A stretch of 64,000 bases of DNA, taken from the NCBI GenBank assembly GCA_019057385.1, contig JAHQJS010000004.1:576001-640000 (forward strand), read 5' to 3'. The DNA is from Candidatus Borrarchaeum weybense (lineage in GTDB: Archaea > Asgardarchaeota > Sifarchaeia > Borrarchaeales > Borrarchaeaceae). The position numbers and the translations under genes are program-made. Below are positions 4,500 to 63,014 of the stretch, one piece after another. The notes beneath the pieces are model-generated. The model was not told where the DNA came from. It saw nothing but the letters and a program-made list of their open reading frames with translations, and did no database searches. Position 1 is the first letter of the stretch. Each line of letters begins with the position of its first letter.

Positions 4500-5606
4500 A
4501 TGCACTTAGGGGTTAAAAAAATGCACGTTTCAGACAATATAAAATTTGGTATCTGCCCTAATCTTTATCCAATTGATGTGATCTACGAAAGTGCGCTGTA
4601 TGCTGATAATAATGGCTTTGCCTCTGTTATGATGGGTGACCATCTTATTGCTATTGGGATTAAACGTTTTGATTGCCTCGAAGCATGGAATACTTTATCT
4701 GCCTTAGCTGTAAAAACAAAAAAGGTGAAGTTAGGCACTTGTGTTACCGATCCTCATCGACGACCTCCGGCAGTATTAGCACAAACTGTAACCACACTTG
4801 ATATCATTAGTAATGGAAGAGCAATATTAGGTATTGGACCCGGCGAAGCAATGAACTTAGATCCTTATGGTGTAACTTGGAAGCGACCGGTATCGCGAAT
4901 GCAAGAATCTCTTAAAATAATTAAGAGCTTATGGACAAAGGAGATGACAGACTATAACGGGGACTTCTTTAGCCTTCAAGAAGCCATATTTGAGCCAAAG
5001 CCAATTCAACAACCACATCCTCCCATTTGGATAGCCGCTAACTCACCAAGAACTATGAAGATAACAGGTGAATTGGCTGATGGATGGTTTCCACTCAATA
5101 TTTCACCTGAAGCCTACAAAGAGAAACTTACATTCATTAGAAAACATGCAAAAGATGCTGGACGATCTCCTGAAGATATTGAACCCGCACTGTTCATGTA
5201 TACGCTTGTTGCACCAACTTCTGATGAGGCTATTGAAAGATTTGAACTGCCTGCAAAAATGCTTTTGGCGTTTTTTCCACGACTGCTTAAAGAGAAGTTT
5301 GGCTATACGTTACCTAACGAGAAATTCAATGCAGCAAAGTTCATTGTTACGCCTTCTAATGTTAAAGAACTCCTAAGCCAAGTGAAAGACATTCCTATGG
5401 AAGCGGTTGAAAAATTTTTTGTTTTCGGTTCACCTGACGAGTGTATCGAAGGAATTGAAAAATTCAAAAAAGCAGGAACTAGGCATTTTGCCTTGGCTTT
5501 GCTTGTTCCTCCACCAAAATTGATGCCTACATTAAAAATGTATCGTGAAAAAGTCATAGCTTATTTCAAAGAATCAACAACGTCATCACTATCGTCTATT
5601 CCTTAG
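4500..5606 (+). CDS. LLM-class (luciferase-like) flavin/F420-dependent oxidoreductase
   Basis: GDH, TLDIISNGRAILGIGPG, PKPIQQPHPPIWIA and GELADGW motifs; real start may be ATG 4521. Confidence 0.9.
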   Translation: MHLGVKKMHVSDNIKFGICPNLYPIDVIYESALYADNNGFASVMMGDHLIAIGIKRFDCLEAWNTLSALAVKTKKVKLGTCVTDPHRRPPAVLAQTVTTLDIISNGRAILGIGPGEAMNLDPYGVTWKRPVSRMQESLKIIKSLWTKEMTDYNGDFFSLQEAIFEPKPIQQPHPPIWIAANSPRTMKITGELADGWFPLNISPEAYKEKLTFIRKHAKDAGRSPEDIEPALFMYTLVAPTSDEAIERFELPAKMLLAFFPRLLKEKFGYTLPNEKFNAAKFIVTPSNVKELLSQVKDIPMEAVEKFFVFGSPDECIEGIEKFKKAGTRHFALALLVPPPKLMPTLKMYREKVIAYFKESTTSSLSSIP

Positions 5607-5667
5607 ACTTGTTCTTCATTTTTATAATTAAAGTGATATATACGAAAGGTGGTAAATTAGAGAAATT

Positions 5668-5925
5668 GTGGTGAATATTATGAAAAAAGTTGGCGTTGTA
5701 GATAAATTCTATTCTAAGATAAGCGTGGCCTTAGTTACGCTTAGTGATACTTTGGCTGTAGATGATAAGATAAAAATTAAAGGGGCGACGACTGATTTTG
5801 AACAGGTTGTTAAGAGTATGCAGATTGAACATGAATCAATTAATTCTGCAACAAAAGGTCAGATGATAGGATTGAAAGTTGAAAATAGGGTACGACCTCA
5901 TGATGAGGTGTTTATTGTAGAATAG
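5668..5925 (+). CDS. Small translation-elongation-factor domain II-like (U32 peptidase C-terminal-like) protein
   Basis: VGVVDKFYSKISVA...IKIKGATTDFEQVVKSMQIEH...GLKVENRVRPHDEVF. Confidence 0.75.
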   Translation: MVNIMKKVGVVDKFYSKISVALVTLSDTLAVDDKIKIKGATTDFEQVVKSMQIEHESINSATKGQMIGLKVENRVRPHDEVFIVE

Positions 5926-6004
5926 CCTGTATCAAAATTTTAAGTTCATTTTTTTAAATTGACTTTTTTGTAGTTTCATCAAAAAAATAGGACCAAAAAA
6001 TCGG

Positions 6005-7312
6005 TCATTTCGAGTAATCGTAGAATCCTCTTCCAGTTTTTCGCCCTAATCGACCAGCTCGTACCATCTTTCGAAGCAGTGGGCACGCTTTATATTTTGG
6101 ATCTCCGAATTCTTCATAAAGATAGTCAAGAATCGCTAGTACGACATCTAATCCTATAAAGTCAGCGAGTGTGAGAGGACCCATTGGATGATTCAATCCA
6201 AGTTTCATCGCTGTATCGATTCCTTCGGCGCTAGAAACTCCCTCTTGAAAAGCAATTATAGCCTCATTGATCATGGGAGTTAGTATTCTATTGACGACGA
6301 ACCCTGGTGCTTCATTAACAAGAACTACAGTCTTATCGAGTTTTTTCACGAATGTTTGCACAGTTTCATATGTTTCATCTGAAGTGCTAAATCCTCGAAT
6401 TAATTCGACTAACTTCATTATAGGCGCTGGGTTGAAGAAGTGTACACCAACTACATTAGCTGGTCTTTTTGTTGCAGAAGCTATCTCTGTTATGCTCAAT
6501 GAAGACGTATTGCTGCCGATAATCGCTTCAGGTTTACATATATTGTCAAGATCGCTAAAGATCTTCTTCTTAAGATCCATGTTTTCTGGTGCAGCTTCAA
6601 TGACGATATCTGCATCTTTTACCGCATTTAAATCTAATGAGCCTTCAATTCTTCCCATTATTGAATCTGCTTGTACTTGTGAAATTTTCCCTTTATCAGC
6701 ACTTCTTGTAACGAATTTCTTGATAGTATTCAGGCCTTTTTGAAGAAACTCATCTGCAACATCTGTCACGACAACATTAAACCCATTCTCTGCCGCAACT
6801 TGGGCAATTCCCGCTCCCATAGTTCCTGCACCAATAACAGCGACCTTCTTTATAACAAAATCTTCCTCAACCTCTTTTTCAACTTCTTCGAGCCCTGTTC
6901 CAACCTCAAAGGCTAAGGCCATCCCAGATTTCGTGGCCATAAATCTTGCGGTCACAGATTTACCAATTTCGACAGTTTCTGGTTTCGATTGCTCTATTCC
7001 GAGAAGAACTGCACTAATTGATGCCCCCTCATCTAATTTTACGACACAATAAGCGTAAGGATGCTTCATATCATAGCCTTTTTGACAATATTCTGAAGTA
7101 CCTACATAAATATTCGTGAATGATTCAACTTTTCCTTTCCCAGCAAGTTCTTGCCATTTGGTATCGGTACTTTGGCACTTTGAACATATTTGTCGTGGCG
7201 GTAAATCAATATTACCACAATTCTTACACTTTGTCCCCATGAGTTTCTTTTCATTCAAAAACTCGTGATAAGATGCCATTGAAATTTCTTTTTCAGCAGT
7301 CATTTTTTCCAC
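6005..7312 (-). CDS. hbd: Fusion of DUF35 Zn-ribbon/OB-fold domain and 3-hydroxybutyryl-CoA dehydrogenase
   Basis: N-terminal CKNC..PPRQICSKC plus OB fold; C-terminal GAGTMGAG, SNTSSLSI, HFFNP, PGFVVNR and HPMGP motifs. Confidence 0.9.
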   Translation of the reverse strand: MEKMTAEKEISMASYHEFLNEKKLMGTKCKNCGNIDLPPRQICSKCQSTDTKWQELAGKGKVESFTNIYVGTSEYCQKGYDMKHPYAYCVVKLDEGASISAVLLGIEQSKPETVEIGKSVTARFMATKSGMALAFEVGTGLEEVEKEVEEDFVIKKVAVIGAGTMGAGIAQVAAENGFNVVVTDVADEFLQKGLNTIKKFVTRSADKGKISQVQADSIMGRIEGSLDLNAVKDADIVIEAAPENMDLKKKIFSDLDNICKPEAIIGSNTSSLSITEIASATKRPANVVGVHFFNPAPIMKLVELIRGFSTSDETYETVQTFVKKLDKTVVLVNEAPGFVVNRILTPMINEAIIAFQEGVSSAEGIDTAMKLGLNHPMGPLTLADFIGLDVVLAILDYLYEEFGDPKYKACPLLRKMVRAGRLGRKTGRGFYDYSK

Positions 7313-7520
7313 CTACCTTCGATAAATATGAACATATAAGTGTATACATTCATCGCCCAACTACTTAATATGAAGATTTTCATTAGTGAGTTAATGGTAA
7401 AGTGACTAGAATTACTTCTATTTTACTTGAGTTTAAAAAGTATTGGCCCGATTCGATCGACAGACGGTTTACAAGTTAATAGTTAATACAAAACAAAGTT
7501 TGAGGGGAAAAGGGGGCTAC

Positions 7521-7570
7521 CCTCTGTCTCTCGAACCATTTGCGCTTTCTAGATTCGAGATCATCCTTAT
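7521..7570 (-). promoter_or_regulatory. Eukaryote-like SECIS element in the 3' UTR of the Sec-peroxiredoxin
   Basis: Minus strand AUGA-UCUCGAA-UCUA-GAAAGCGCAAA-UGG-UUCGAGA-GAC: AUGA/GA core, 7-bp perfect helix, apical AAA; about 30 nt after the stop. Confidence 0.85.
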
Positions 7571-7595
7571 CCCTCAGATATTATTGGTTATCACT

Positions 7596-8159
7596 TTAAA
7601 GTTTTCCTGCTAGGTCTATACCGGGTGTTAAACCAGGTTCTCCTTCCTTCCATCCGGCAGGAGCAACTTGTCCGGTTTTTTTATGGAATTGTATGGCCTT
7701 GAGAACTCGGATAACTTCGTCCGTATTGCGTGCTATGGGTTCATTGTATATACTGAGCGCTTGTATCATTCCCTCTGGATCGATCCAGAAGATTGCACGA
7801 AGAGCAAATTTTCTGTCCTCGTCGTAAACCCCGTATAGTCTGCTTATTTCACCGTCTGGGTCAGCTAGCATCGGATAGGTAACTTTCTTGACTGTCGGAG
7901 AAACATCGGTCCAGACCTTATGTGAAAACACTGTATCCATGCTGATTGAAAGCACTTCTGCATTGAGTTCTTTAATTTCATTGTATTGATCGGCTACAGC
8001 GCCTAATTCGGTGGGTCAGATGAAGGTAAAATCGGCAGGATAGAACCAGAGAAGAACCCACTTACCGAGGTAGTCCGCGAGGCTAACTTCTTTGATTTCA
8101 TTGTCAATGTATGCTTGCGTCTTAAAGTCAGGTGCTGGCTTTCCAACAATTGCCTCCAT
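7596..8159 (-). CDS. Selenocysteine-containing AhpC/Prx1-type peroxiredoxin (187 aa, U48)
   Basis: ATG 8159 after a GGTGA SD; reads [12 protein letters not shown]...[13 protein letters not shown](8018-8016)-PTELG, with UGA at the peroxidatic Cys; in frame with ORF 7596..7955; SECIS downstream. Confidence 0.92.
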
Positions 8160-8303
8160 TTTTTTCACCTTTTTGGCTGAAACCGTATCTATATAGGCTT
8201 TAAGTCTAATTGTATGCTCTAAAAAAGCAAATTCTTATTTTTAAAGAGCAAACAGACCCCCGCACTGGTCTGACTTTTGAAGCACTTTTAATACAATTTC
8301 TGC

Positions 8304-8332
8304 CATAATGAAAATGATTATCAATATCATTA
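8304..8332. promoter_or_regulatory. Fur-box-like operator
   Basis: 8304-8322 CATAATGAAAATGATTATC matches the 19-bp Fur consensus GATAATGATAATCATTATC at 16/19. It lies just downstream of a minus-strand TTTATATA box (~8335-8342) facing the Sec-Prx gene. Confidence 0.7.
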
Positions 8333-8650
8333 AATATATAAAATTAACGGATTCAATTCTAAAAGGCCCATCCATCTAATTCAGAAATTTTTCAAAGACG
8401 AGTAATCATCATAAAGAGGCTTAAAAAGCATAGAATTATGCACATAAAGGCAGTTCAAATGGCTCCCGAAAGCACAAGTGGTCTAGCGCACATTTTTCTA
8501 AGAGTGCAACAGTGCTCAATATTGAAGACAACTGGTAACTCGATGAGGGCTTACGGTTCGATAATTTCTGATAGCATAAAAAAAACGAAAATTCACTCGT
8601 AAACCGCTACCATACATTCTTAAGAGTAATAGAGTTTATTATCTTTCAGA

Positions 8651-9127
8651 GTGAGGAAAATGCAATTGCAGAAAAGAAAAAAGGATTTAAATCTCATAAT
8701 ATCTGAGTCTCACTTAAAAGAAAAACTTAAGGAAAGAAATCTACGTTTAACGAAAGCACGAAAAATTATCCTTGAAGAAGTAAAAAAGGCACGGTCTCAT
8801 CCAAGTGCGTATGATATTTGTGTAAAAGTTAGAGAGCGGTTTCCGAACATCGGAATTGCTACGGTCTATCGTAATTTGAAGCTTTTTAAAGAATTAGGCC
8901 TTATTTTTGAGTTAGAATATACTGGGGAACAAGGTAGGTTCGATAGTGGTTCTCCAGATCATTCTCATTTTATTTGTGAGAGGTGTGGAGAGGTTTTCGA
9001 CCTTGAAGATCCCATTGATAAAACACTTGAGGTAACATTTGAAAAACGTATTGGTGCAAAATTTACACACCATAGAGTAGAATTCTATGGACTTTGCAAA
9101 GTATGCAGGTCTACTAAGCGCGCATAG
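8651..9127 (+). CDS. fur: Fur/PerR-family metalloregulator
   Basis: RLTKAR..IL, HPSA, IATVYRNL, HSHFICERCG and YGLCKVC motifs. Confidence 0.92.
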   Translation: MRKMQLQKRKKDLNLIISESHLKEKLKERNLRLTKARKIILEEVKKARSHPSAYDICVKVRERFPNIGIATVYRNLKLFKELGLIFELEYTGEQGRFDSGSPDHSHFICERCGEVFDLEDPIDKTLEVTFEKRIGAKFTHHRVEFYGLCKVCRSTKRA

Positions 9128-9180
9128 ACATTGATTTTTCCAATTTTTTCTCTTTAAGATATACTAAATTCTTTCATTAC

Positions 9181-9228
9181 AAATAACTAAGCAAGAAAGC
9201 ACCACCGCTTTAGCGTGAGGTAGTTCAC
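9181..9228 (+). mobile_element. 48-bp IS200/IS605-derived left-end/right-end hybrid (PATE-like relic)
   Basis: TTAC|aaataactaagcaagAAAGcacca-cgctttagcg-tgaggtagtTCAC. The left part is near-identical to the left end of the MITE at 35696-35900; the right part resembles its right end. Confidence 0.8.
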
Positions 9229-10475
9229 CTTTTATAGATGTGAACAACTGCAGTGCTTCCGGATCCTCCTACATTATGTGTCAATCCAATTTCAACGTTT
9301 GATACCTGACGTTCCCCAGCTTCATCACGTAATTGCTTAAATATCTCAACAGTTTGTGCAACTCCGCTAGCACCAACCGGATGTCCCTTACTCTTGAGCC
9401 CACCTGATGTATTGATAGGCAGATCGCCGTCTAAGGCGGTTCTTCCTTCCAAAGTTACTCTTCCTCCAGTTCCTTTCTCAAAAAAGCCCAGATCTTCTAT
9501 TGCCAGAATCTCAGCGATAGTGAAACAATCGTGTACTTCAGCAATTTTGATATCCTGAGGTCCAAGACCAGCCATTTGATAAGCCTGTTGACTTGCTACC
9601 CTAGCAGCTCTCAGAGAGGTCATAGTATCTCGATCATCTAAAGAAAATGCATCACTACCCTGACCACTACCTATTACCCAGATAGGTGTATCTGTATACT
9701 TTTTAGCTACCTCTTCAGATGCTAAAAAGACACATGCCGCCCCGTCTGTGATCAATGAGCAATCAAACAATCGTAATGGATATGCAATCATAGGATTTGA
9801 ACTACTTTTCAGAAATTCATATTCATCAGCCCAACTTGGAACAGTTTGACCCTTTTGTTTTGCTCTTTCAATGCGTTTGTTCATGATGTCCGTGATGGTG
9901 TTTTGCATTTGCGCCTTTGGATTAAGCGCACCGTTTGCATGGTTCTTAATTGATACTGCCATTAATTGTTCCTCTGTTGTACCGAACTTTGCCATATGTG
10001 CTGTGGCCATAGTTGCATATAGACCAGGGAACGTAGCTCCAGCTAAAACTTCTGAGTGCGTGTCGCTTGCTGCTGCTAAGGCATCTGTCACTTCAGTCGT
10101 CGTCAAGTTTGTCATCTTTTCTGTGCCACCGATACATACAATATCGTATTCACCAGAGGCAATAGCTAGAACACCAAGTCTTAAGGCTACACCACTACTG
10201 GCACATGCATCTTCGATCCTCATTGCAGCCTTTGGAGTGAGTCCAACTAGATCCGCCATAAGCGGAGCAGTATGCGTCTGTTTTTCGAAAAGGTCAGATG
10301 AATAATTGCCTAAAAAGAGGGCTTCAACGTCCTTCACATCAATGTCATTATCCACTGATTTTTTTGAGTCCAAAAAAGCTTCTACCCAAAGTTCTCGGTT
10401 CGTCTTTCTATCAAATCTACCAAATTTACTCATTCCTGCTCCAATAACTGCTACATTTCGAAAAAGTTTTCCCAT
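9225..10475 (-). CDS. Archaeal (SCP2-type) thiolase / acetyl-CoA acetyltransferase
   Basis: EDACASSG, EVHDCF, GHPVGA and HNVGG motifs. Confidence 0.93.
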   Translation of the reverse strand: MGKLFRNVAVIGAGMSKFGRFDRKTNRELWVEAFLDSKKSVDNDIDVKDVEALFLGNYSSDLFEKQTHTAPLMADLVGLTPKAAMRIEDACASSGVALRLGVLAIASGEYDIVCIGGTEKMTNLTTTEVTDALAAASDTHSEVLAGATFPGLYATMATAHMAKFGTTEEQLMAVSIKNHANGALNPKAQMQNTITDIMNKRIERAKQKGQTVPSWADEYEFLKSSSNPMIAYPLRLFDCSLITDGAACVFLASEEVAKKYTDTPIWVIGSGQGSDAFSLDDRDTMTSLRAARVASQQAYQMAGLGPQDIKIAEVHDCFTIAEILAIEDLGFFEKGTGGRVTLEGRTALDGDLPINTSGGLKSKGHPVGASGVAQTVEIFKQLRDEAGERQVSNVEIGLTHNVGGSGSTAVVHIYKR

Positions 10476-10514
10476 GTTGTTTCCCTCATAAAAAATCGAA
10501 TTTTCTGTTACACA

Positions 10515-11300
10515 TCAATTTCCTGCAAAGTTTGGTTTTCTCTTATCAAATAGTGCTTGAATTCCTTCTCTGAGGTCTTCGGTCTCAAAACATTTCTTTT
10601 CTGCTTCGAGTTCATGTTTGTATCCTTCTTCAATATTTCCTTCAAAAGAAACATTTGTAGCTGCTTTTGCTAATTGCACCGCAATAGGTGCGTTGTTTGC
10701 TATTTTTTCTGCGATCTTGTTAGCCGACGGGATTAATTCGTCGAAAGTTACAACCTTATTAACCAGCCCTAGACGTTCTGCATCTTTTGCCGAAATATGA
10801 TTTCCCGTTAAAATAAGTTCTTTTGCTCTTCCTAGTCCTATCACTTTTGGCAGTCTTTGTGTTGCGCCCCAGCCAGGTATGAGTCCTACTCCAACTTCAG
10901 GAGTTCCTAATTTTGCATTCTCAGAAGCAATCCTAATATCACAAGCGAGGGCTAACTCTAAACCGCCACCAAGAGCGAATCCATTAATCGCCGCAATGAA
11001 AGGTTTTTTCATAGTCTCAATTTTTCGCATAAGCATTTGTCCTTTTTCGATAAATTGTGCAAATTCCTCTTTGGTGGAGTTTTTAATTCCAGCCAAATCT
11101 GCACCAGTACAAAAGGCTCTCTCTCCTTCACCTGTTATTATTACAACTTTTACTCTCCCATCGTTCCCTATTTCGTCTAGCAAATTGTCAAATTTGTCTA
11201 TCACATCTTTATTAAAAGCATTGAGAGCATTTGGCCTATTAATCGTAATAATTCCTATTTTATCTACCGCTTCATATTTCAGTGAGTTCAATATAATCAC
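10515..11300 (-). CDS. crt: Enoyl-CoA hydratase (crotonase)
   Basis: NRPNALNA, AFCTGADL, GFALGGGLELALACD and PEVGVGLIPGWG motifs. Confidence 0.92.
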   Translation of the reverse strand: MIILNSLKYEAVDKIGIITINRPNALNAFNKDVIDKFDNLLDEIGNDGRVKVVIITGEGERAFCTGADLAGIKNSTKEEFAQFIEKGQMLMRKIETMKKPFIAAINGFALGGGLELALACDIRIASENAKLGTPEVGVGLIPGWGATQRLPKVIGLGRAKELILTGNHISAKDAERLGLVNKVVTFDELIPSANKIAEKIANNAPIAVQLAKAATNVSFEGNIEEGYKHELEAEKKCFETEDLREGIQALFDKRKPNFAGN

Positions 11301-11466
11301 CTATCACGCTTGTATAGAACTTTGATAACTTTCTTAACTTCACCTCATGTGCCTTTATTTAATAAAAGTTTGATGTAGAACTATCCCCTCAAATGAAACT
11401 TAAAATAGCTTTTTCTCATAGACACAAAATGTTTGTGATTTCGTTAAAAAAAAGAAAAGATGATTG

Positions 11467-11934
11467 TTACATCCTACCTTTTAGGAAGAATAGAATCGAA
11501 TTAAGTAAGCCAGCTATTGTGCCGCCGTAAAAGCCTGGTTCGAACCACCATTCATAATAACTGTATGCAGCCGCAAATGCTGCACCGCCTATAAGCGTAA
11601 TAATCAAGGTAAAGACTGCAAAAAAGATACCCCATCTTGAAAAGTTTGCTGGCAGAAACTGAGAAAGTATAGTCTCAGGCCACAACTCATTCACGCATAT
11701 CACAATTTGTCCCAGCAGAAGTAACATAGCAAGAATAATCGCCGTTCTATCAACTGCGGTTGCATATTCACAGGTTAAGCAGGAATAACGGTACCCTTTA
11801 TAATAGCCTGTTAAATAAAATCCTGCAAAACGCGTAAAGGTAACAAGAATAAATCCTATTATACTCAGTACAAGAATAATTAACGAATACATCCTTTGTG
11901 ACGCAAATCCTAAATTTGAGTTCGAGTCTGACAA
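11467..11934 (-). CDS. Hypothetical 4-TM membrane protein
   Basis: Four hydrophobic segments; CxxC in a loop; GGAGG SD upstream. Confidence 0.65.
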   Translation of the reverse strand: MSDSNSNLGFASQRMYSLIILVLSIIGFILVTFTRFAGFYLTGYYKGYRYSCLTCEYATAVDRTAIILAMLLLLGQIVICVNELWPETILSQFLPANFSRWGIFFAVFTLIITLIGGAAFAAAYSYYEWWFEPGFYGGTIAGLLNSILFFLKGRM

Positions 11935-12085
11935 ATTTAATCCTCCCTAAGACTTCTGAATTAAAAATATATGTATCTATTTGCTAATATAAAAAAAATT
12001 GGTATAGGCTAGATTCTGATGCTTATTGTTAAAGAATGTATTAAACGGAAAAAAGAACTATGACCAAGCAAAACGCCAAGTCGAC

Positions 12086-13546
12086 TCACTCTTTGAATTC
12101 TGGAAATGCTTCAAATGGTTCGATGCCCGCAAGTACTTTTGCGATTTTCTTTCGTGTTTCCCAATCGTATCCTCTATTAATTGTGATTCGTTGCGCTTCT
12201 GGTGATCCACCGCCATGGCATGATGCAACCATGAGCCAGCCTGCGAATCCATGAGCCGTTAAGTCTTCCACTAGTTTGAATGCTTTCATTCTGTCTTCAG
12301 AAGGAATTTCTGCTTTTCCTTTCATGTATTTTTCGAGGTCAGGGCGTGTTTCAGGGTTTTCAAAGTCTGCGCCTGAGGGACAGGTAACCGCAAATCCTCC
12401 GGCGATATCATGGACGCGATAAATCTCTTCGTATATGTGAGTTCCCGCGATATACTTGCCAATATTGACATAAGTAATATCAGGGATATATGTGCCAGGC
12501 CCCATTGGTTTACCTCTGACTGACCCTGTAATTCCGCATGCATACATCTGTTCTGCTGTGCATGCTAAATCTGTAAGTTTTCCTTGTATGTGAGATGCAT
12601 GGTCTACGCCATTATATTCTGCAATTAATGCTGCAGTTCCTGAGAGCATGTCCGTGACCGCTGGCTTGCAACCACAGTAGGAATGTCGATGATAAACCCC
12701 AAATCCCTCGGCTACTTGACCTGCGAGCTCCCACTCTCCTGCCATAAACACGCGATTCCATGGGACAAATACATCCTGCAAGATTGTTAAAGTCTCTGTA
12801 ACACCCCATCTTTGTCCGAAGGGACGGTCCATTTTACTTGTTCTTTTTGGAACAGTTGAACGTGCAATGAATTTCATGCCCTCAGCATCCACAGGTAACG
12901 CAAATGCAACGGCATAATCTTTATCTTCTTTTCTCATTGCGCGTGTAGGCAAGAAAATTATATCATTGGCAGGAATAGCCGCAGTGGTGTGGCATTTGGC
13001 TCCTCTAACGGTGATCCCTTCGTCATTTCTATCAACAATTCGAACATAAAGGTCTGGGTCTGCTTGATCTGCGGGTCTTAACTTTCTATCGCCCTTTACA
13101 TCCGTCATCGCCCCTGTGGCACAAACATCCTCTTTTTGAAACCATTTCATATATTCAATGAAATTATCATAATAATTTGTTCCATATTTCTTGTCAGAAA
13201 GCCAAGTTGTTATTGACAGCGTGTTAAGGGCATCTATGGCCATACATCTTTGAATGCAACAGCAATATCGTGCGTATAATCTAGTCATTTGGACTTTTTT
13301 CACTAAATCCTCGTTCGATTGCTGTATGTGAGTGAACCGATTAATTTTTTCACCAGTGAGATGTGATGTGGCGGTTGTCAGATGTTCATATCTTGGATCT
13401 CGTGCTAATTCGTAGGTGAACGCTAATACATCGATTTGAGGCTTGAGTAGTGGATGATTTATGCGATCTTCTATTTTTTCACCAAACATGTAAATCTCAG
13501 GTTTCTGTTTTTTTAGGCTTTCAATATACTCTCCTTTTGTTTTCAA
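12086..13546 (-). CDS. abfD: 4-hydroxybutyryl-CoA dehydratase-like protein (AbfD/HpaB family)
   Basis: CIQRC and HRHSYCGC Fe-S ligand motifs; AMTDVKGDR, DPDLY, RGAKCH and HGGGSPEAQR. Confidence 0.85.
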   Translation of the reverse strand: MKTKGEYIESLKKQKPEIYMFGEKIEDRINHPLLKPQIDVLAFTYELARDPRYEHLTTATSHLTGEKINRFTHIQQSNEDLVKKVQMTRLYARYCCCIQRCMAIDALNTLSITTWLSDKKYGTNYYDNFIEYMKWFQKEDVCATGAMTDVKGDRKLRPADQADPDLYVRIVDRNDEGITVRGAKCHTTAAIPANDIIFLPTRAMRKEDKDYAVAFALPVDAEGMKFIARSTVPKRTSKMDRPFGQRWGVTETLTILQDVFVPWNRVFMAGEWELAGQVAEGFGVYHRHSYCGCKPAVTDMLSGTAALIAEYNGVDHASHIQGKLTDLACTAEQMYACGITGSVRGKPMGPGTYIPDITYVNIGKYIAGTHIYEEIYRVHDIAGGFAVTCPSGADFENPETRPDLEKYMKGKAEIPSEDRMKAFKLVEDLTAHGFAGWLMVASCHGGGSPEAQRITINRGYDWETRKKIAKVLAGIEPFEAFPEFKE

Positions 13547-13745
13547 AGTCTTGCCTCCAAAATATGTAGGTGAACTAGTTTAGAAGATGCGATTAAAAAA
13601 CCTATTCTTTCGGTCAAATATGAGCATAGCTGTTGCTTGAGCTATGTTTTTTTATACAAAGAGGCATAAAAGAACCTTGCAGTTAGTCTTGTTGTTGTAG
13701 TTTAACCCTCAAACGATATTTGTAATTGATTACCGAGGTGTCTCT

Positions 13746-14516
13746 ATGAGTGAAAGGCTCAAAGATAAAATTGCGATTGTTACAGGGAGTTCAACAGGAA
13801 TTGGTAAGGCGATTGCATTAGCTTTTGCTAAAGAAGGTGCGATAGTGGTTACAAATTCGAGAAAATTGGAAAGAGCAGAAACTACAGCCAAAGAAATCAG
13901 AATTATGGGACGACAAGCACATACTATTGAAGCAGATCTCACAAAAACGTCTGATATAGATTATCTTATTGATACAACAATTGAAAAGTTAGACAGAATT
14001 GATATTCTCGTAAATAATGCCGGAATTGCGATGATTTCGCCAACTGAGGATCTTTCAGAGCATGACTGGGATCGAGCCGTAACTATTGATCTCAAAGCAA
14101 CCTTTCTTTGTTCTCAAAAAGCGGCTAAACGCGCTATGATACCTCAAAAACGCGGTGTGATCATTAACATCAGCTCAATTTTGGGCAACGTTGGTTTGCC
14201 CATGCGGGCTGCTTATTGTGCTGCAAAAGCAGGGGTAAATGCGCTTACTCAGGTTATGGGTAGTGAATGGGCTAAATATAATATACGGGTAGTTGCTATT
14301 GGACCTGGCTATATATTGACTGAGATGGAGCAGCAATCGCTTGACAAAGGTGATTATACTACTGAACATATTCTTAATCGGGTGCCTATGAAACGGTATG
14401 GTAAACTTGAGGAGGTAGCAAACACTGCGGTATTTTTGGCTTCAGATGATGCCAGTTACATTACAGGAGAAATAGTTTACGTAGATGGTGCAATGAGCGC
14501 AACTGGTGGGTGGTAA
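13746..14516 (+). CDS. Short-chain dehydrogenase/reductase (FabG-like)
   Basis: TGSSTGIG, NNAG, YCAAK. Confidence 0.92.
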   Translation: MSERLKDKIAIVTGSSTGIGKAIALAFAKEGAIVVTNSRKLERAETTAKEIRIMGRQAHTIEADLTKTSDIDYLIDTTIEKLDRIDILVNNAGIAMISPTEDLSEHDWDRAVTIDLKATFLCSQKAAKRAMIPQKRGVIINISSILGNVGLPMRAAYCAAKAGVNALTQVMGSEWAKYNIRVVAIGPGYILTEMEQQSLDKGDYTTEHILNRVPMKRYGKLEEVANTAVFLASDDASYITGEIVYVDGAMSATGGW

Positions 14517-14581
14517 CAACACTAACTGACTTATAGTTTAATATTTACACGATACATTTGATTGATGGATGGTGTGTTTCA

Positions 14582-15352
14582 GTGAGTGAGAAACTCAAAG
14601 ATAAAATAGCGATTGTTACGGGAAGTTCATTAGGAATTGGTAAGGCGATTGCATTAGCTTTTGCCAAACAAGGTGCAATTGTAGTTACAAATTCAAGAAA
14701 ATTAGAAAGAGCAGAAGTCACAGCCAGTGAAATCAGGCATCTGGGACGACAAGCACATGCTATTGAAGCAGATCTTACAAAATCGACCGATGTAGACCAT
14801 TTAATCGATACAACTATTGAGCATTTCGGGAGGATTGATATCCTTGTAAATAATGCTGGAATCGCGATGATTGTGCCGACAGAAGACCTTTCAGAGCATG
14901 ACTGGGATCGTGCAATAGATATCGACCTTAAGGCGACTTTTCTGTGCTCGCAGAAGGCTGCTAAGCGTGCTATGATTCCGCAAAGGAGTGGTGTTATCAT
15001 CAACATCAGCTCGATCCTAGCCAAAACCGCCTTACCTATGCGTGCCGCTTATTGTGCCTCAAAAGCTGGAGTAATGGCACTCACTCAAGTTATGGGATGT
15101 GAATGGGCAAAATACAGAATCCGCGTTGTTGCAATCGGTCCCGGTTATATATTGACGGAGTTAGTACAACAGTCGATTGATACCGGTGTCTTTAATGCTG
15201 AAACTCTTATCGATAGGACACCGATGAAACGCCTTGGTAAGCTTGACGAAATTGCGAATTTGGCAGTATTTTTAGCTTCTGATGATGCGGGTTACATTAC
15301 AGGAGAGATAATATATGTAGACGGCGGTATGACAGCAACTGGAGGCTGGTAA
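14582..15352 (+). CDS. Short-chain dehydrogenase/reductase, tandem paralogue
   Basis: TGSSLGIG, NNAG, YCASK; start set to GTG 14582 by alignment with the upstream copy. Confidence 0.92.
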   Translation: MSEKLKDKIAIVTGSSLGIGKAIALAFAKQGAIVVTNSRKLERAEVTASEIRHLGRQAHAIEADLTKSTDVDHLIDTTIEHFGRIDILVNNAGIAMIVPTEDLSEHDWDRAIDIDLKATFLCSQKAAKRAMIPQRSGVIINISSILAKTALPMRAAYCASKAGVMALTQVMGCEWAKYRIRVVAIGPGYILTELVQQSIDTGVFNAETLIDRTPMKRLGKLDEIANLAVFLASDDAGYITGEIIYVDGGMTATGGW

Positions 15353-15397
15353 AGTCTTTTCCTCTTAGAAAAAAAGGAAAATACTCACATCTAATTC

Positions 15398-15877
15398 TTA
15401 AGCCAAATTCTCTAAAGATTTTTCGATTTCTTCGTAAGGGGGCTCAATTTTTGGATTCTCTGATACCCATGTGTATCTTACAATCCCTTCTTTGTCAATA
15501 ACAAAGACGGCACGCATTGCAACTGTATATCCTTTGAGCCCTGCAAAGTCTTTAGATTCAAGACCATAAAGTCGTGTTACTTCTCTATTATAATCATTTA
15601 GCAAAGGAAATTCGAGTAAGTTTGCCCCTGCAAAAGCCCTGTTCGTGAAGGGATCATTTACACTTATTCCGAGAACTTGAGCGTTTAGATCGTTAAATCT
15701 TGATAGAGAATCTTGAAAGGTACAGAGAGATTTTTGACAGGTTGACGTAAATGCTCCTGGGTAAAAGTATAAAACAACATTTTTGCCACGAAAACCACTT
15801 AATCTTTGAGGTTTTAACTCGGTGTCGGGTAGAGTGAAATCAGGAGCTTCCTGATCAACTTTTATTTTAGGATTCAT
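15398..15877 (-). CDS. Cys-peroxiredoxin (BCP/AhpE-like)
   Basis: [31 protein letters not shown]. Confidence 0.9.
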
Positions 15878-15980
15878 TTATTTTAAAACCCCTCGCAGAT
15901 TACTGTTAATAACTCGTTTAGTTAAACTATAAAGACGTTTCCAAATGGGAAAAAGTATTCTTTTTAAATGAGAAAAAAGC

Positions 15981-17009
15981 ATGCGTTTACTAATTCAGGT
16001 GATCAATATGAAGATGGTCTTTTATGAAGTTGAGCCGTGGCAAGAAGAGTACTTGCAAAAAACCCTTGAAGGACATGAGTTATATTTCTACGAAAATTGC
16101 CTTAGTTCTCCTGATGTCGTAGAAGTCGATGAAGTTGGCGATGCAGAGGTTCTCTCTACGATGGGAAGAGGACACCATCCGAACAAAGCGGCTTTGGATC
16201 GTTTTTCGAATCTCAAATTTATAGCACTCAGATGTACCGGATTCGATCATGTCGACCTAAAAGAATGTAAGAGACGTAATATACCCGTGAGTAATGTTCC
16301 AGCCTACGGTGATAATACAGTAGCTGAGCAAGGATTTTGTTTATTATTGGCATTGATGCGGCGATTCCCTCAATATAATTCAATGGTTGCTGCTGAAGAT
16401 TTCTCTGTTGGGCCGATAGGATTTGATCTGAAAGGGAAGACTCTAGGAATAGTTGGTGCTGGTCGTATTGGACTCTATGCTATCAAAATCGGACGCGGAT
16501 TTGGAATGGACGTACTTGCATATGATATTATCTTTAATGATTTTGCTCGCGAAACGCTTGGATACGAATATGTATCTCTTGAAGAACTGTTGAAAAACTC
16601 GGATGTAATCTCTCTGCATGCACCATACAATAAATACACACATCATATGATCAACAAGGACAACATTAGACTGATTAAACCAGGTGCTGTCCTTGTTAAT
16701 ACGGCCCGTGGTGCAATTATAGAGCTTGGAGCTCTCAAACAGGCATTGGAAGAAGGAATCTTTGGTGGAGCGGCTTTAGATGTTATTGAAGGAGAGGAAT
16801 TGCTTTTAAAAGATCGAACACAACTTTCTCAAGAGGAAACAGAGATTTTGGAACAAGTTTTGAGCATTGTGCGGCGCGACAATGTTGTTTTCACTCCGCA
16901 TATCGCTTACTATACAAAAGAGGCGGCGGAAAGAATTCTAGACACAACGATTGCTAATATAAAAGCGTTTGTAGAAGGACATCCCCAAAATGTGGTTTCA
17001 AAAACATAA
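15981..17009 (+). CDS. D-isomer-specific 2-hydroxyacid dehydrogenase (D-lactate dehydrogenase-like)
   Basis: GFDHVD, GAGRIG, NTARG and TPHIAY motifs. Confidence 0.9.
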   Translation: MRLLIQVINMKMVFYEVEPWQEEYLQKTLEGHELYFYENCLSSPDVVEVDEVGDAEVLSTMGRGHHPNKAALDRFSNLKFIALRCTGFDHVDLKECKRRNIPVSNVPAYGDNTVAEQGFCLLLALMRRFPQYNSMVAAEDFSVGPIGFDLKGKTLGIVGAGRIGLYAIKIGRGFGMDVLAYDIIFNDFARETLGYEYVSLEELLKNSDVISLHAPYNKYTHHMINKDNIRLIKPGAVLVNTARGAIIELGALKQALEEGIFGGAALDVIEGEELLLKDRTQLSQEETEILEQVLSIVRRDNVVFTPHIAYYTKEAAERILDTTIANIKAFVEGHPQNVVSKT

Positions 17010-62537: not shown

Positions 62538-62568
62538 ATTCTAAACGCCCCTTTGCATTCTAAGGGTT

Positions 62569-62608
62569 GTCTTCTTGAAACCACAATGTTTACGTTTCAA
62601 GAGTCATT
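62569..62608 (-). promoter_or_regulatory. Eukaryote-like SECIS element overlapping the mvhD stop codon
   Basis: AUGA-C-UCUUGAAAC-GUAAACAUUGUG-GUUUCAAGA-A-GAC; 9-bp perfect helix; same 32-nt GA-to-GA spacing as the Prx SECIS. Confidence 0.85.
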
Positions 62609-63014
62609 CAGTTTTTAATGGATTTGGTCCAAGCTTTTCGACTTTCTTGAGGGTATCCTCTACAGCTGCCACAAATCTACCTGCTTCTGCAGCAGACAGG
62701 AAGTACATATTGACTCGGTTTTCGCCGAGACCATGTCGTTTGAGGATTCGTTTTACAAAGTTGACGTTTCTATCTGCCTTCAAATTTCCGTCAGGAAATT
62801 CACATTCACCCTTGTGACATCCAACTACCATAACACCATCAGCGCCCTGCCGAATGGCGTGAAGAAGATGTCCTGCGTTGATTCGTCCAGTGCAACGAAT
62901 CCTTACAATATTTATGTTTGGTGGGTACTTCATGCGACATGTGCCAGCTAAATCGGCTGCAGGGTAACCTCATTTGTCGCAAGCAAGAGCAACTATGTTA
63001 TAATTGTCATCCAT
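62604..63014 (-). CDS. mvhD: Selenocysteine-containing MvhD/VhuD (136 aa, U15)
   Basis: ATG 63014 after GGAG: MDDNYNIVALACDK-UGA(62972-62970)-GYPAADLAG, aligning with CNWCSYAGADLAG of the Cys paralogue; in frame with ORF 62604..62933. Confidence 0.92.

Follow-up and report, generated by a model that had tools for sequence, protein, structure and literature searches.

The 64,000-nt stretch of DNA analysed here (the window) belongs to the Asgard archaeon Candidatus Borrarchaeum weybense (GCA_019057385.1, contig JAHQJS010000004.1, positions 576,001 to 640,000). On its minus strand, at 7596–8159, it carries a 187-codon gene that, judged from its sequence, very probably encodes a functional, genuine selenoprotein: a PrxU-like peroxiredoxin of the AhpC/Prx1 fold, with selenocysteine (Sec) as the peroxidatic residue. 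The decoding signal appears to be a kink-turn-type Sec insertion sequence (SECIS) hairpin in the 3′ untranslated region (UTR), 31 nt past the stop codon. Gene and hairpin lie together with a putative regulator on a lineage-specific insert of about 1.9 kb, in a genome that holds a set of genes for Sec decoding.

A peroxiredoxin frame with a single in-frame TGA

The coding sequence runs from ATG at 8159 to TAA at 7596–7598, and a GGTGA motif resembling a ribosome-binding site stands 5 nt upstream of the ATG (8165–8169, minus strand). The frame is interrupted once, by a TGA at 8016–8018 (minus strand; U48 counted from the ATG), and is intact on both sides. With TGA translated as Sec, the site reads FTFI-U-PTE, a P-x-x-x-T-x-x-U active site, as an earlier note made from the letters alone had proposed. 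In an alignment of the window protein with 22 homologues of 47–55% identity (A1), the TGA column is the invariant peroxidatic Cys (FTF[IV]-C-PTE), so the comparison of UGA with Cys that the earlier note suggested came out as Cys in 22/22. The catalytic Pro, Thr and Arg (P44, T48 and R124) are retained in invariant A1 columns, and W173 is also kept. The second cysteine of typical 2-Cys peroxiredoxins is not: the resolving-Cys column of the V-C-P motif, Cys in every one of the A1 homologues, is Ala in the window protein (GQVAPAGW), leaving V-A-P in its place. The 187-aa translation has no Cys at all, in agreement with the Cys-free protein first described.

Assignment to the AhpC type likewise held. 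Both Pfam domains of the AhpC/Prx1 subfamily exceed their cut-offs in the window protein: AhpC-TSA (PF00578) with E 4e-39 and 127.7–133.8 bits (cut-off 26), and the C-terminal 1-cysPrx_C (PF10417) with 31.2 bits (cut-off 21.1). The closest PDB structures are bacterial AhpC chains, matched over the whole length with E about 4e-51. Among NCBIfam models, PrxU (NF040737) ranks first at 224.5 bits, followed by AhpC at 213.7 bits.

Standard gene calling divides this gene. The table-11 listing of open reading frames (ORFs) breaks it into pieces of 50 aa and 119 aa, the truncation pointed out in the earlier note, and one public gene call gives 47 aa and 114 aa. To that extent the gene is hidden, as the note had it; the description does not extend to NCBI assembly GCA_019058535.1, in which the gene is apparently called at its full 187 aa across the TGA and has probably been annotated as a selenoprotein already.

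That the TGA arose from faulty sequencing or assembly, or that TGA has been reassigned genome-wide to an ordinary amino acid, we consider extremely improbable. Nothing specific speaks for either; there is the generic concern that attaches to a metagenome-assembled genome (4.18 Mb in 8 contigs, with 7% estimated contamination). A check of 8016–8018 for a TGT or TGC codon in further assemblies returned TGA twice, in a Logan contig from SRR14802573 (L049, 99.9% identical over 3.7 kb) and in contig JAHPYX010000215.1 of GCA_019058535.1 (L100, 99.6% identical over 6.5 kb). The three sequences agree on the TGA yet differ at nearby sites, with no differences inside the gene or the hairpin. Reassignment is contradicted by the VhuD genes of the same genome, which terminate in TGA where their orthologues have TAA, so TGA serves there as a normal stop.

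The downstream hairpin and the Sec-decoding apparatus

The SECIS-like hairpin (7527–7564, minus strand) starts 31 nt past the TAA, matching the roughly 30 nt given in the earlier note, and about 450 nt past the UGA. Read 5′ to 3′, it comprises AUGA (7564–7561), UCUCGAAUC, the 14-nt loop UAGAAAGCGCAAAU, GGUUCGAGA and GA (7528–7527), the 9-bp stem being formed by 7560–7552 with 7537–7529. The AUGA/GA core, the stem of about 9 bp and the early apical A's follow the pattern of Asgard eukaryote-like SECIS elements, or lokiSECIS type I, and the hairpin can in this sense be called eukaryote-type, as had been suggested. Directly past the GA, a minimum-free-energy (MFE) fold places a G+C-rich hairpin (AGAGGG/CCCUUU; 7501–7526, minus strand). 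Further 3′, CCCUCA can pair with UGAGGG at 7571–7576 as a lower helix, and T-runs come next. A G+C-rich hairpin right after the core is also present in the verified SECIS elements of VhuD a, VhuD c and an AhpF-N-like gene, and is absent from likely false hits.

Whether this hairpin is a SECIS element was examined with a pattern search, a trained model and the Rfam families. A first descriptor was dropped as too loose (272 matches). Its strict replacement requires AUGA; a stem of 9–12 bp with a mismatch allowed at the first pair only; a loop of 9–20 nt that has AAA within positions 1–7; and GA or AA after the stem. It finds 11 sites in the 4.18-Mb genome, compared with 2–5 (about 3) in five shuffled genomes; two VhuD SECIS elements and that of the AhpF-N-like gene are among the 11. 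By chance, about 4e-5 strict matches would be expected in the 100 nt past the peroxiredoxin gene.

For the model, the training set consisted of 16 SECIS elements taken from VhuD and AhpF-N-like genes in this genome and in eight relatives, with the peroxiredoxin element left out. Their 9-bp helix has standard pairs in 92% of cells and two-sided changes in 9/9 pairs, a value that no shuffle or slide approaches, and their loops span 11–14 alignment columns. A model that included 8-nt flanks (R1) gave the peroxiredoxin element 7.4 bits; it was replaced by a core-only model (R2) because the flanks were judged VhuD-specific, the stop codon of VhuD genes sitting inside the AUGA. With R2 the element scores 15.5 bits and ranks second on both strands of the window, behind a training sequence, which makes it the top non-training match in the 128 kb searched; E is 0.26 for the whole window and 0.0011 for the 283-nt 3′ intergenic region. 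With Rfam SECIS models the window yields no match at gathering threshold, and relaxing E to 10 for 7350–7700 yields none either. We regard the support for the hairpin as good but not overwhelming.

Sec might be inserted by way of some other structure, or by read-through independent of any SECIS, although this seems very unlikely. SECIS diversity within the organism is attested by its tandem Prx-like genes, whose 3′ element has another shape, and both the loop length and the model score of 7527–7564 are atypical. Against such a signal, the region past the UGA forms just a 3-bp stem (MFE −5 kcal/mol, z +0.59) in place of an in-ORF bacterial SECIS, and no further site in the 283-nt 3′ region scores with R2.

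The decoding apparatus to which the earlier note tied its prediction is present: SelD, EFSec and tRNA-Sec were found, together with PSTK and SepSecS. Profile searches of the genome gave 410.6 bits for SepSecS, 250 bits for SelD, which has an in-frame TGA of its own (n=1), and 286.5 bits for EFSec. The EFSec gene directly follows a PSTK-like gene, which at 185.8 bits lies under the TIGR03574 cut-off. By requiring a 9-bp acceptor stem that encloses a UCA anticodon loop, a 120-nt tRNA-Sec(UCA) was recovered at C6:464920-465039 (minus strand; C5 to C8 denote contigs of this genome). Its variable arm is long, its T-arm contains an AT-rich insert (an intron) of about 32 nt, and discriminator G and CCA are present; it agrees with the Loki tRNA-Sec described in PMC4989117. 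Both ARAGORN and the Rfam tRNA-Sec model missed this gene, the latter scoring it under its cut-off, and an ARAGORN "tRNA-???" on C5 proved to be an ordinary intron-bearing tRNA. On these sequence matches, the set of tRNA-Sec, PSTK, SepSecS, SelD and EFSec is complete in the genome.

Other TGA-bearing genes are present as well: three VhuD/FlpD, two tandem Prx-like and one AhpF-N-like. One of the VhuD/FlpD selenoprotein genes lies in the window (62568–62996, minus strand) and has a single in-frame TGA; its SECIS (62570–62607) contains the gene's own stop inside the AUGA core, an arrangement shared by orthologues in several relatives. The AhpF-N-like gene (C6:507436-508240, minus strand) is a 251-aa thioredoxin-fold ORF with the motif G-D-U-P-F-C-P that resembles the AhpF N-terminal domain, and its TGA stop is again inside the SECIS AUGA.

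Taken as a selenoprotein, the peroxiredoxin would work as follows. The UGA at 8016–8018 would be recoded during translation by the archaeal and eukaryote-type Sec pathway (tRNA-Sec, PSTK, SepSecS, SelD and EFSec), directed by the 3′-UTR hairpin. The selenolate would reduce peroxide and become a selenenic acid, which an external thiol or selenol protein would then have to reduce, because the protein has neither a resolving Cys nor any other Cys. The reductant is most likely a thioredoxin-fold partner; NCBI names the PrxU family "thioredoxin-dependent". Since AhpC is naturally reduced by the N-terminal domain of AhpF, the AhpF-N-like selenoprotein is a possible, if speculative, partner.

Some hits of the strict or loose descriptor are of a different kind. 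Those at C6:513942-513985 (minus strand), C8:185740-185783 (plus strand) and C8:162369-162421 (minus strand) have the AUGA-stem-loop-GA form, a common loop GAA(A/C)GCAGGGAUACAAGA and a conserved 5′ flank; they are repeat copies with no upstream UGA gene, and were rejected as SECIS elements, looking instead like a dispersed repeat or small RNA. Two other hairpins of the strict pattern, C5:171523-171556 and C6:678474-678509 (both plus strand), are followed by a G+C-rich hairpin as in verified SECIS elements. No clear UGA-containing gene was found upstream of either, and they may mark unrecognised selenoprotein genes. Separately, ARAGORN reports a tRNA-Pyl with a CUA anticodon at C7:143743-143811 (minus strand), in line with the description of Ca. 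Borrarchaeum in PMC9723677, and the genome appears to recode both UGA, for Sec, and UAG, for pyrrolysine (Pyl).

Bacterial Sec relatives and a recent insert

AhpC-type homologues (E 1e-35 or better) are scarce among Asgard archaea: they occur in 8/399 other genomes, always as Cys forms and at 52% identity or less, and in none of the four same-genus genomes (0/4). Searches for a counterpart with the TGA found none in 400 Asgard genomes, and none above about 57% identity in genome and metagenome contigs, among 60 relatives, in two word-indexed protein searches or in one exhaustive search of representatives.

Four relatives that also have UGA at this codon (L045, L079, L080 and L083) were reached through fragment-length matches. 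L045, from Syntrophomonas sp. UBA4922, reads FTFV-U-ATE and has Ala at the resolving position; L079 keeps the Cys there, L080 has Ile, and L083 is without a resolving Cys. A close Cys-form relative, P0130, has the same QVAPAGW and no resolving Cys. From these sequences, loss of the resolving Cys is not unique to the window protein and recurs in the bacterial PrxU-like clade. All four UGA-bearing relatives have a 6–8-bp hairpin 11–21 nt past the UGA. This in-ORF bacterial signal of the Sec forms in the clade is absent from the window gene, where an Asgard-type 3′-UTR SECIS would substitute for it. A public call of the bacterial Sec-peroxiredoxin L083 (Logan SRR31392202, 939 nt) reads the TGA as Trp (FSFV-W-PTE), a wrong genetic code having been assigned on account of the Sec codon.

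Maximum-likelihood (ML) trees place the window protein with these sequences. In a 34-row tree it is sister to three Sec-peroxiredoxin rows (94/84), and in a 47-row tree it lies inside a 14-row clade (starred; 100/97) that holds all Sec rows. There its neighbours are the long-branched P0134 (a UGA form) and P0148 (a Cys form). We claim clade membership alone, since the exact sister is unstable and long-branched; support for the clade was 98/99 and then 100/97 across two ML trees. The clade unites all UGA forms with Cys forms of variable resolving positions, has named members from Syntrophomonas and Peregrinibacteria, and is distinct from the clade of Asgard Cys-peroxiredoxins. A union of the window protein with the Asgard Cys rows is rejected by an approximately unbiased (AU) test (p 0.011).

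The gene occupies an insert at 7322–9246, recognised by same-genus comparison, that contains the peroxiredoxin, the SECIS-like hairpin and the regulator and ends in imperfect 13-nt direct repeats (7322–7334 and 9234–9246). Three same-genus genomes, whose flanks are 80–95% identical at the DNA level, have no counterpart of the window from 7334 to about 9230; in them, DNA up to 7333 joins directly to 9227–9253 onward, and the start of a 3-hydroxyacyl-CoA dehydrogenase abuts the stop of a thiolase. These comparisons indicate that the insert was acquired after the species split from its sequenced congeners.

The regulator (8651–9127, plus strand) is divergent from the peroxiredoxin and belongs to the Fur family (Pfam FUR, E 5e-30); its best NCBIfam models are PerR, under their cut-offs. 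A homologue of 67% identity is likewise divergent and adjoins rubrerythrin. Among the regulator homologues, the neighbours are rubrerythrin or unrelated genes, and none stands beside a Sec-peroxiredoxin. Expression of the window gene is presumably controlled by this PerR-like repressor.

Several observations weigh against a functional selenoprotein. The model scores for the hairpin are modest with both R1 and R2, its loop has 14 nt where 11 nt are described for lokiSECIS, and it matches no Rfam SECIS family. With PrxU (NF040737) the window protein falls short of the equivalog cut-off of 270, best-scoring family though it is, whereas the Syntrophomonas Sec-peroxiredoxin passes it at 335.4 bits. 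The gene is a recent arrival, and a fresh nonsense mutation would likewise leave an intact-looking frame. A second species with the gene was not found in the searches above, and comparative proof of selection on the UGA or the hairpin is therefore missing. The main weakness is that this is a single-species case built on sequence.

A rival reading is a recent pseudogene: the TGT or TGC codon of a horizontally acquired 1-Cys-type peroxiredoxin would have mutated to TGA, and the hairpin would belong to a terminator or resemble a SECIS by chance. In favour of this, the gene stands alone, with no TGA orthologue among the 400 Asgard genomes, the insert is young enough for decay not to be visible yet, the Cys-form P0130 already lacks the resolving Cys, and the SECIS scores are those just given. 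We nonetheless consider such a pseudogene unlikely. The chance of a strict-pattern hairpin at the right place and on the right strand is of the order computed above, the hairpin is the best non-training model match in the space searched, and it is followed by the extra 3′ hairpin of verified SECIS elements. Further, the genome has several other selenoprotein genes, other members of the clade have UGA at exactly this codon, and nothing is damaged in the start codon, the ribosome-binding motif or any of the catalytic residues.

As to where the gene came from, its recent acquisition together with a SECIS of Asgard type makes a second Asgard archaeon that uses Sec the probable direct donor; further back, the protein seems to have come from bacteria. 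A wider scenario, which we advance tentatively and rate at somewhat less than an even chance, is that a PrxU-type gene crossed from bacteria to Asgard archaea, lost its in-ORF SECIS, gained a eukaryote-like 3′-UTR SECIS and now moves between Sec-using Asgard archaea as a compact PerR-peroxiredoxin-SECIS cassette.

The surroundings of the insert are metabolic. Within 5000–17000 of the window it interrupts a thiolase/3-hydroxyacyl-CoA dehydrogenase arrangement that is unbroken in congeners, in a cluster of β-oxidation or butyrate type with an enoyl-CoA hydratase, an HpaB/AbfD-like enzyme and two short-chain dehydrogenases/reductases (SDRs). A second, Cys-containing peroxiredoxin lies 7 kb from the first, at 15398–15877 (minus strand); it is of the shorter BCP/PrxQ-like type, with 126 bits to PF00578 and without the C-terminal domain.

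Significance and comparison with known systems

With a T-x-x-U peroxiredoxin added, the Asgard selenoproteome would no longer be confined to hydrogenase and heterodisulfide-reductase enzymes but would extend to direct peroxide defence. Because the same protein family uses an in-ORF hairpin in bacteria and apparently a 3′-UTR kink-turn hairpin here, the locus is a natural example of a change of decoding signal upon a change of domain, which bears on the spread of eukaryotic-style Sec decoding. If the cassette scenario is true, it would provide a tangible instance of SECIS exchange between domains. The 1.9-kb insert with its regulator also offers a compact unit for reporter work on Asgard SECIS function, and the peroxiredoxin adds another gene to those that standard gene callers cut in two.

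Published surveys list this selenoprotein family for bacteria. PrxU is the Sec-containing peroxiredoxin of Eubacterium acidaminophilum (Sohling et al. 2001, as cited in PMC8533274 and PMC13188914), and "Peroxiredoxin (Prx), TxxU" is an established bacterial selenoprotein in Table 1 of PMC13188914, with no archaeal mark there. That 2026 review counts 11 archaeal selenoprotein families, the T-x-x-U peroxiredoxin not included. Mariotti et al. 2016 (PMC4989117) described Lokiarchaeota with only Prx-like U-x-x-C/U proteins and stressed the absence of T-x-x-C. Huang et al. 2024 (PMC11227280) reported seven Asgard families and 227 Sec-using genomes, with no true peroxiredoxin among the families; a Borrarchaeum weybense metagenome-assembled genome is present in their files, and no peptide of the window peroxiredoxin was found in their sequence files. 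Sun et al. 2021 (PMC9723677) report "a peroxiredoxin (Prx)" from Sifarchaeia or Jordarchaeia, identified with Seblastian, which they treat as the same as the Loki protein, an ambiguous entry. Automated annotation, and possibly also the table of Sun et al., may already contain the gene. Set against these lists, the peroxiredoxin is a new archaeal member of a selenoprotein family so far listed for bacteria only.

Compared with typical 2-Cys AhpC (PDB 4mab and 1yep; Salmonella AhpC), the window protein has the same catalytic Pro, Thr and Arg and the full-length structural match noted above. It differs in having Sec for the peroxidatic Cys and Ala for the resolving Cys, and with the latter replacement the intersubunit disulfide cycle and direct recycling of the AhpF type become impossible.

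The hairpin shares with lokiSECIS (PMC4989117, PMC11227280) the AUGA...GA core, the 9-bp stem, the early A-run in the loop and the position just past the stop. Beyond its longer loop, it departs from lokiSECIS in an A-run that begins at loop position 4 and in its modest score with the VhuD-trained model. Rfam SECIS models also miss the Loki SECIS elements (PMC4989117).

Among Asgard selenoproteins, the AhpF-N homologue and the DsbA-like protein, bacterial-type families that Huang et al. 2024 newly recorded in these archaea, are comparable in kind, being rare and lineage-restricted. Their eukaryote-like SECIS elements resemble those of the resident selenoprotein genes. The window gene belongs to another family, groups among bacterial sequences that include Sec forms, and sits on a 1.9-kb insert.

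The Asgard PrxL.1 and PrxL.2 proteins (PMC4989117, PMC11227280) have in common with the window protein the thioredoxin fold, PF00578, the absence of Cys outside the active site and a 3′-UTR SECIS. This genome has two PrxL genes, about 90 kb from the peroxiredoxin, with the active sites N-U-P-Y-C and A-U-G-H-U. PrxL proteins have U-x-x-C or U-x-x-U and are without T-x-x-C (PMC4989117), whereas the window protein has T-F-I-U and no second Cys or Sec. It combines a true P-x-x-x-T-x-x-U site with the 1-cysPrx_C tail, and scores 127.7 bits to PF00578, compared with 69 and 48.7 bits for the two PrxL genes.

The closest known system is PrxU itself. The two have the AhpC/Prx1 fold and Sec at T-x-x-U in common, PrxU is the best NCBIfam model for the window protein, the starred clade is shared with the Syntrophomonas protein, and loss of the resolving Cys is frequent in that clade. 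The window protein differs from PrxU in falling under the 270 cut-off, in its archaeal host and in its apparent signal, a kink-turn-type SECIS in the 3′ UTR in place of a hairpin within the ORF.

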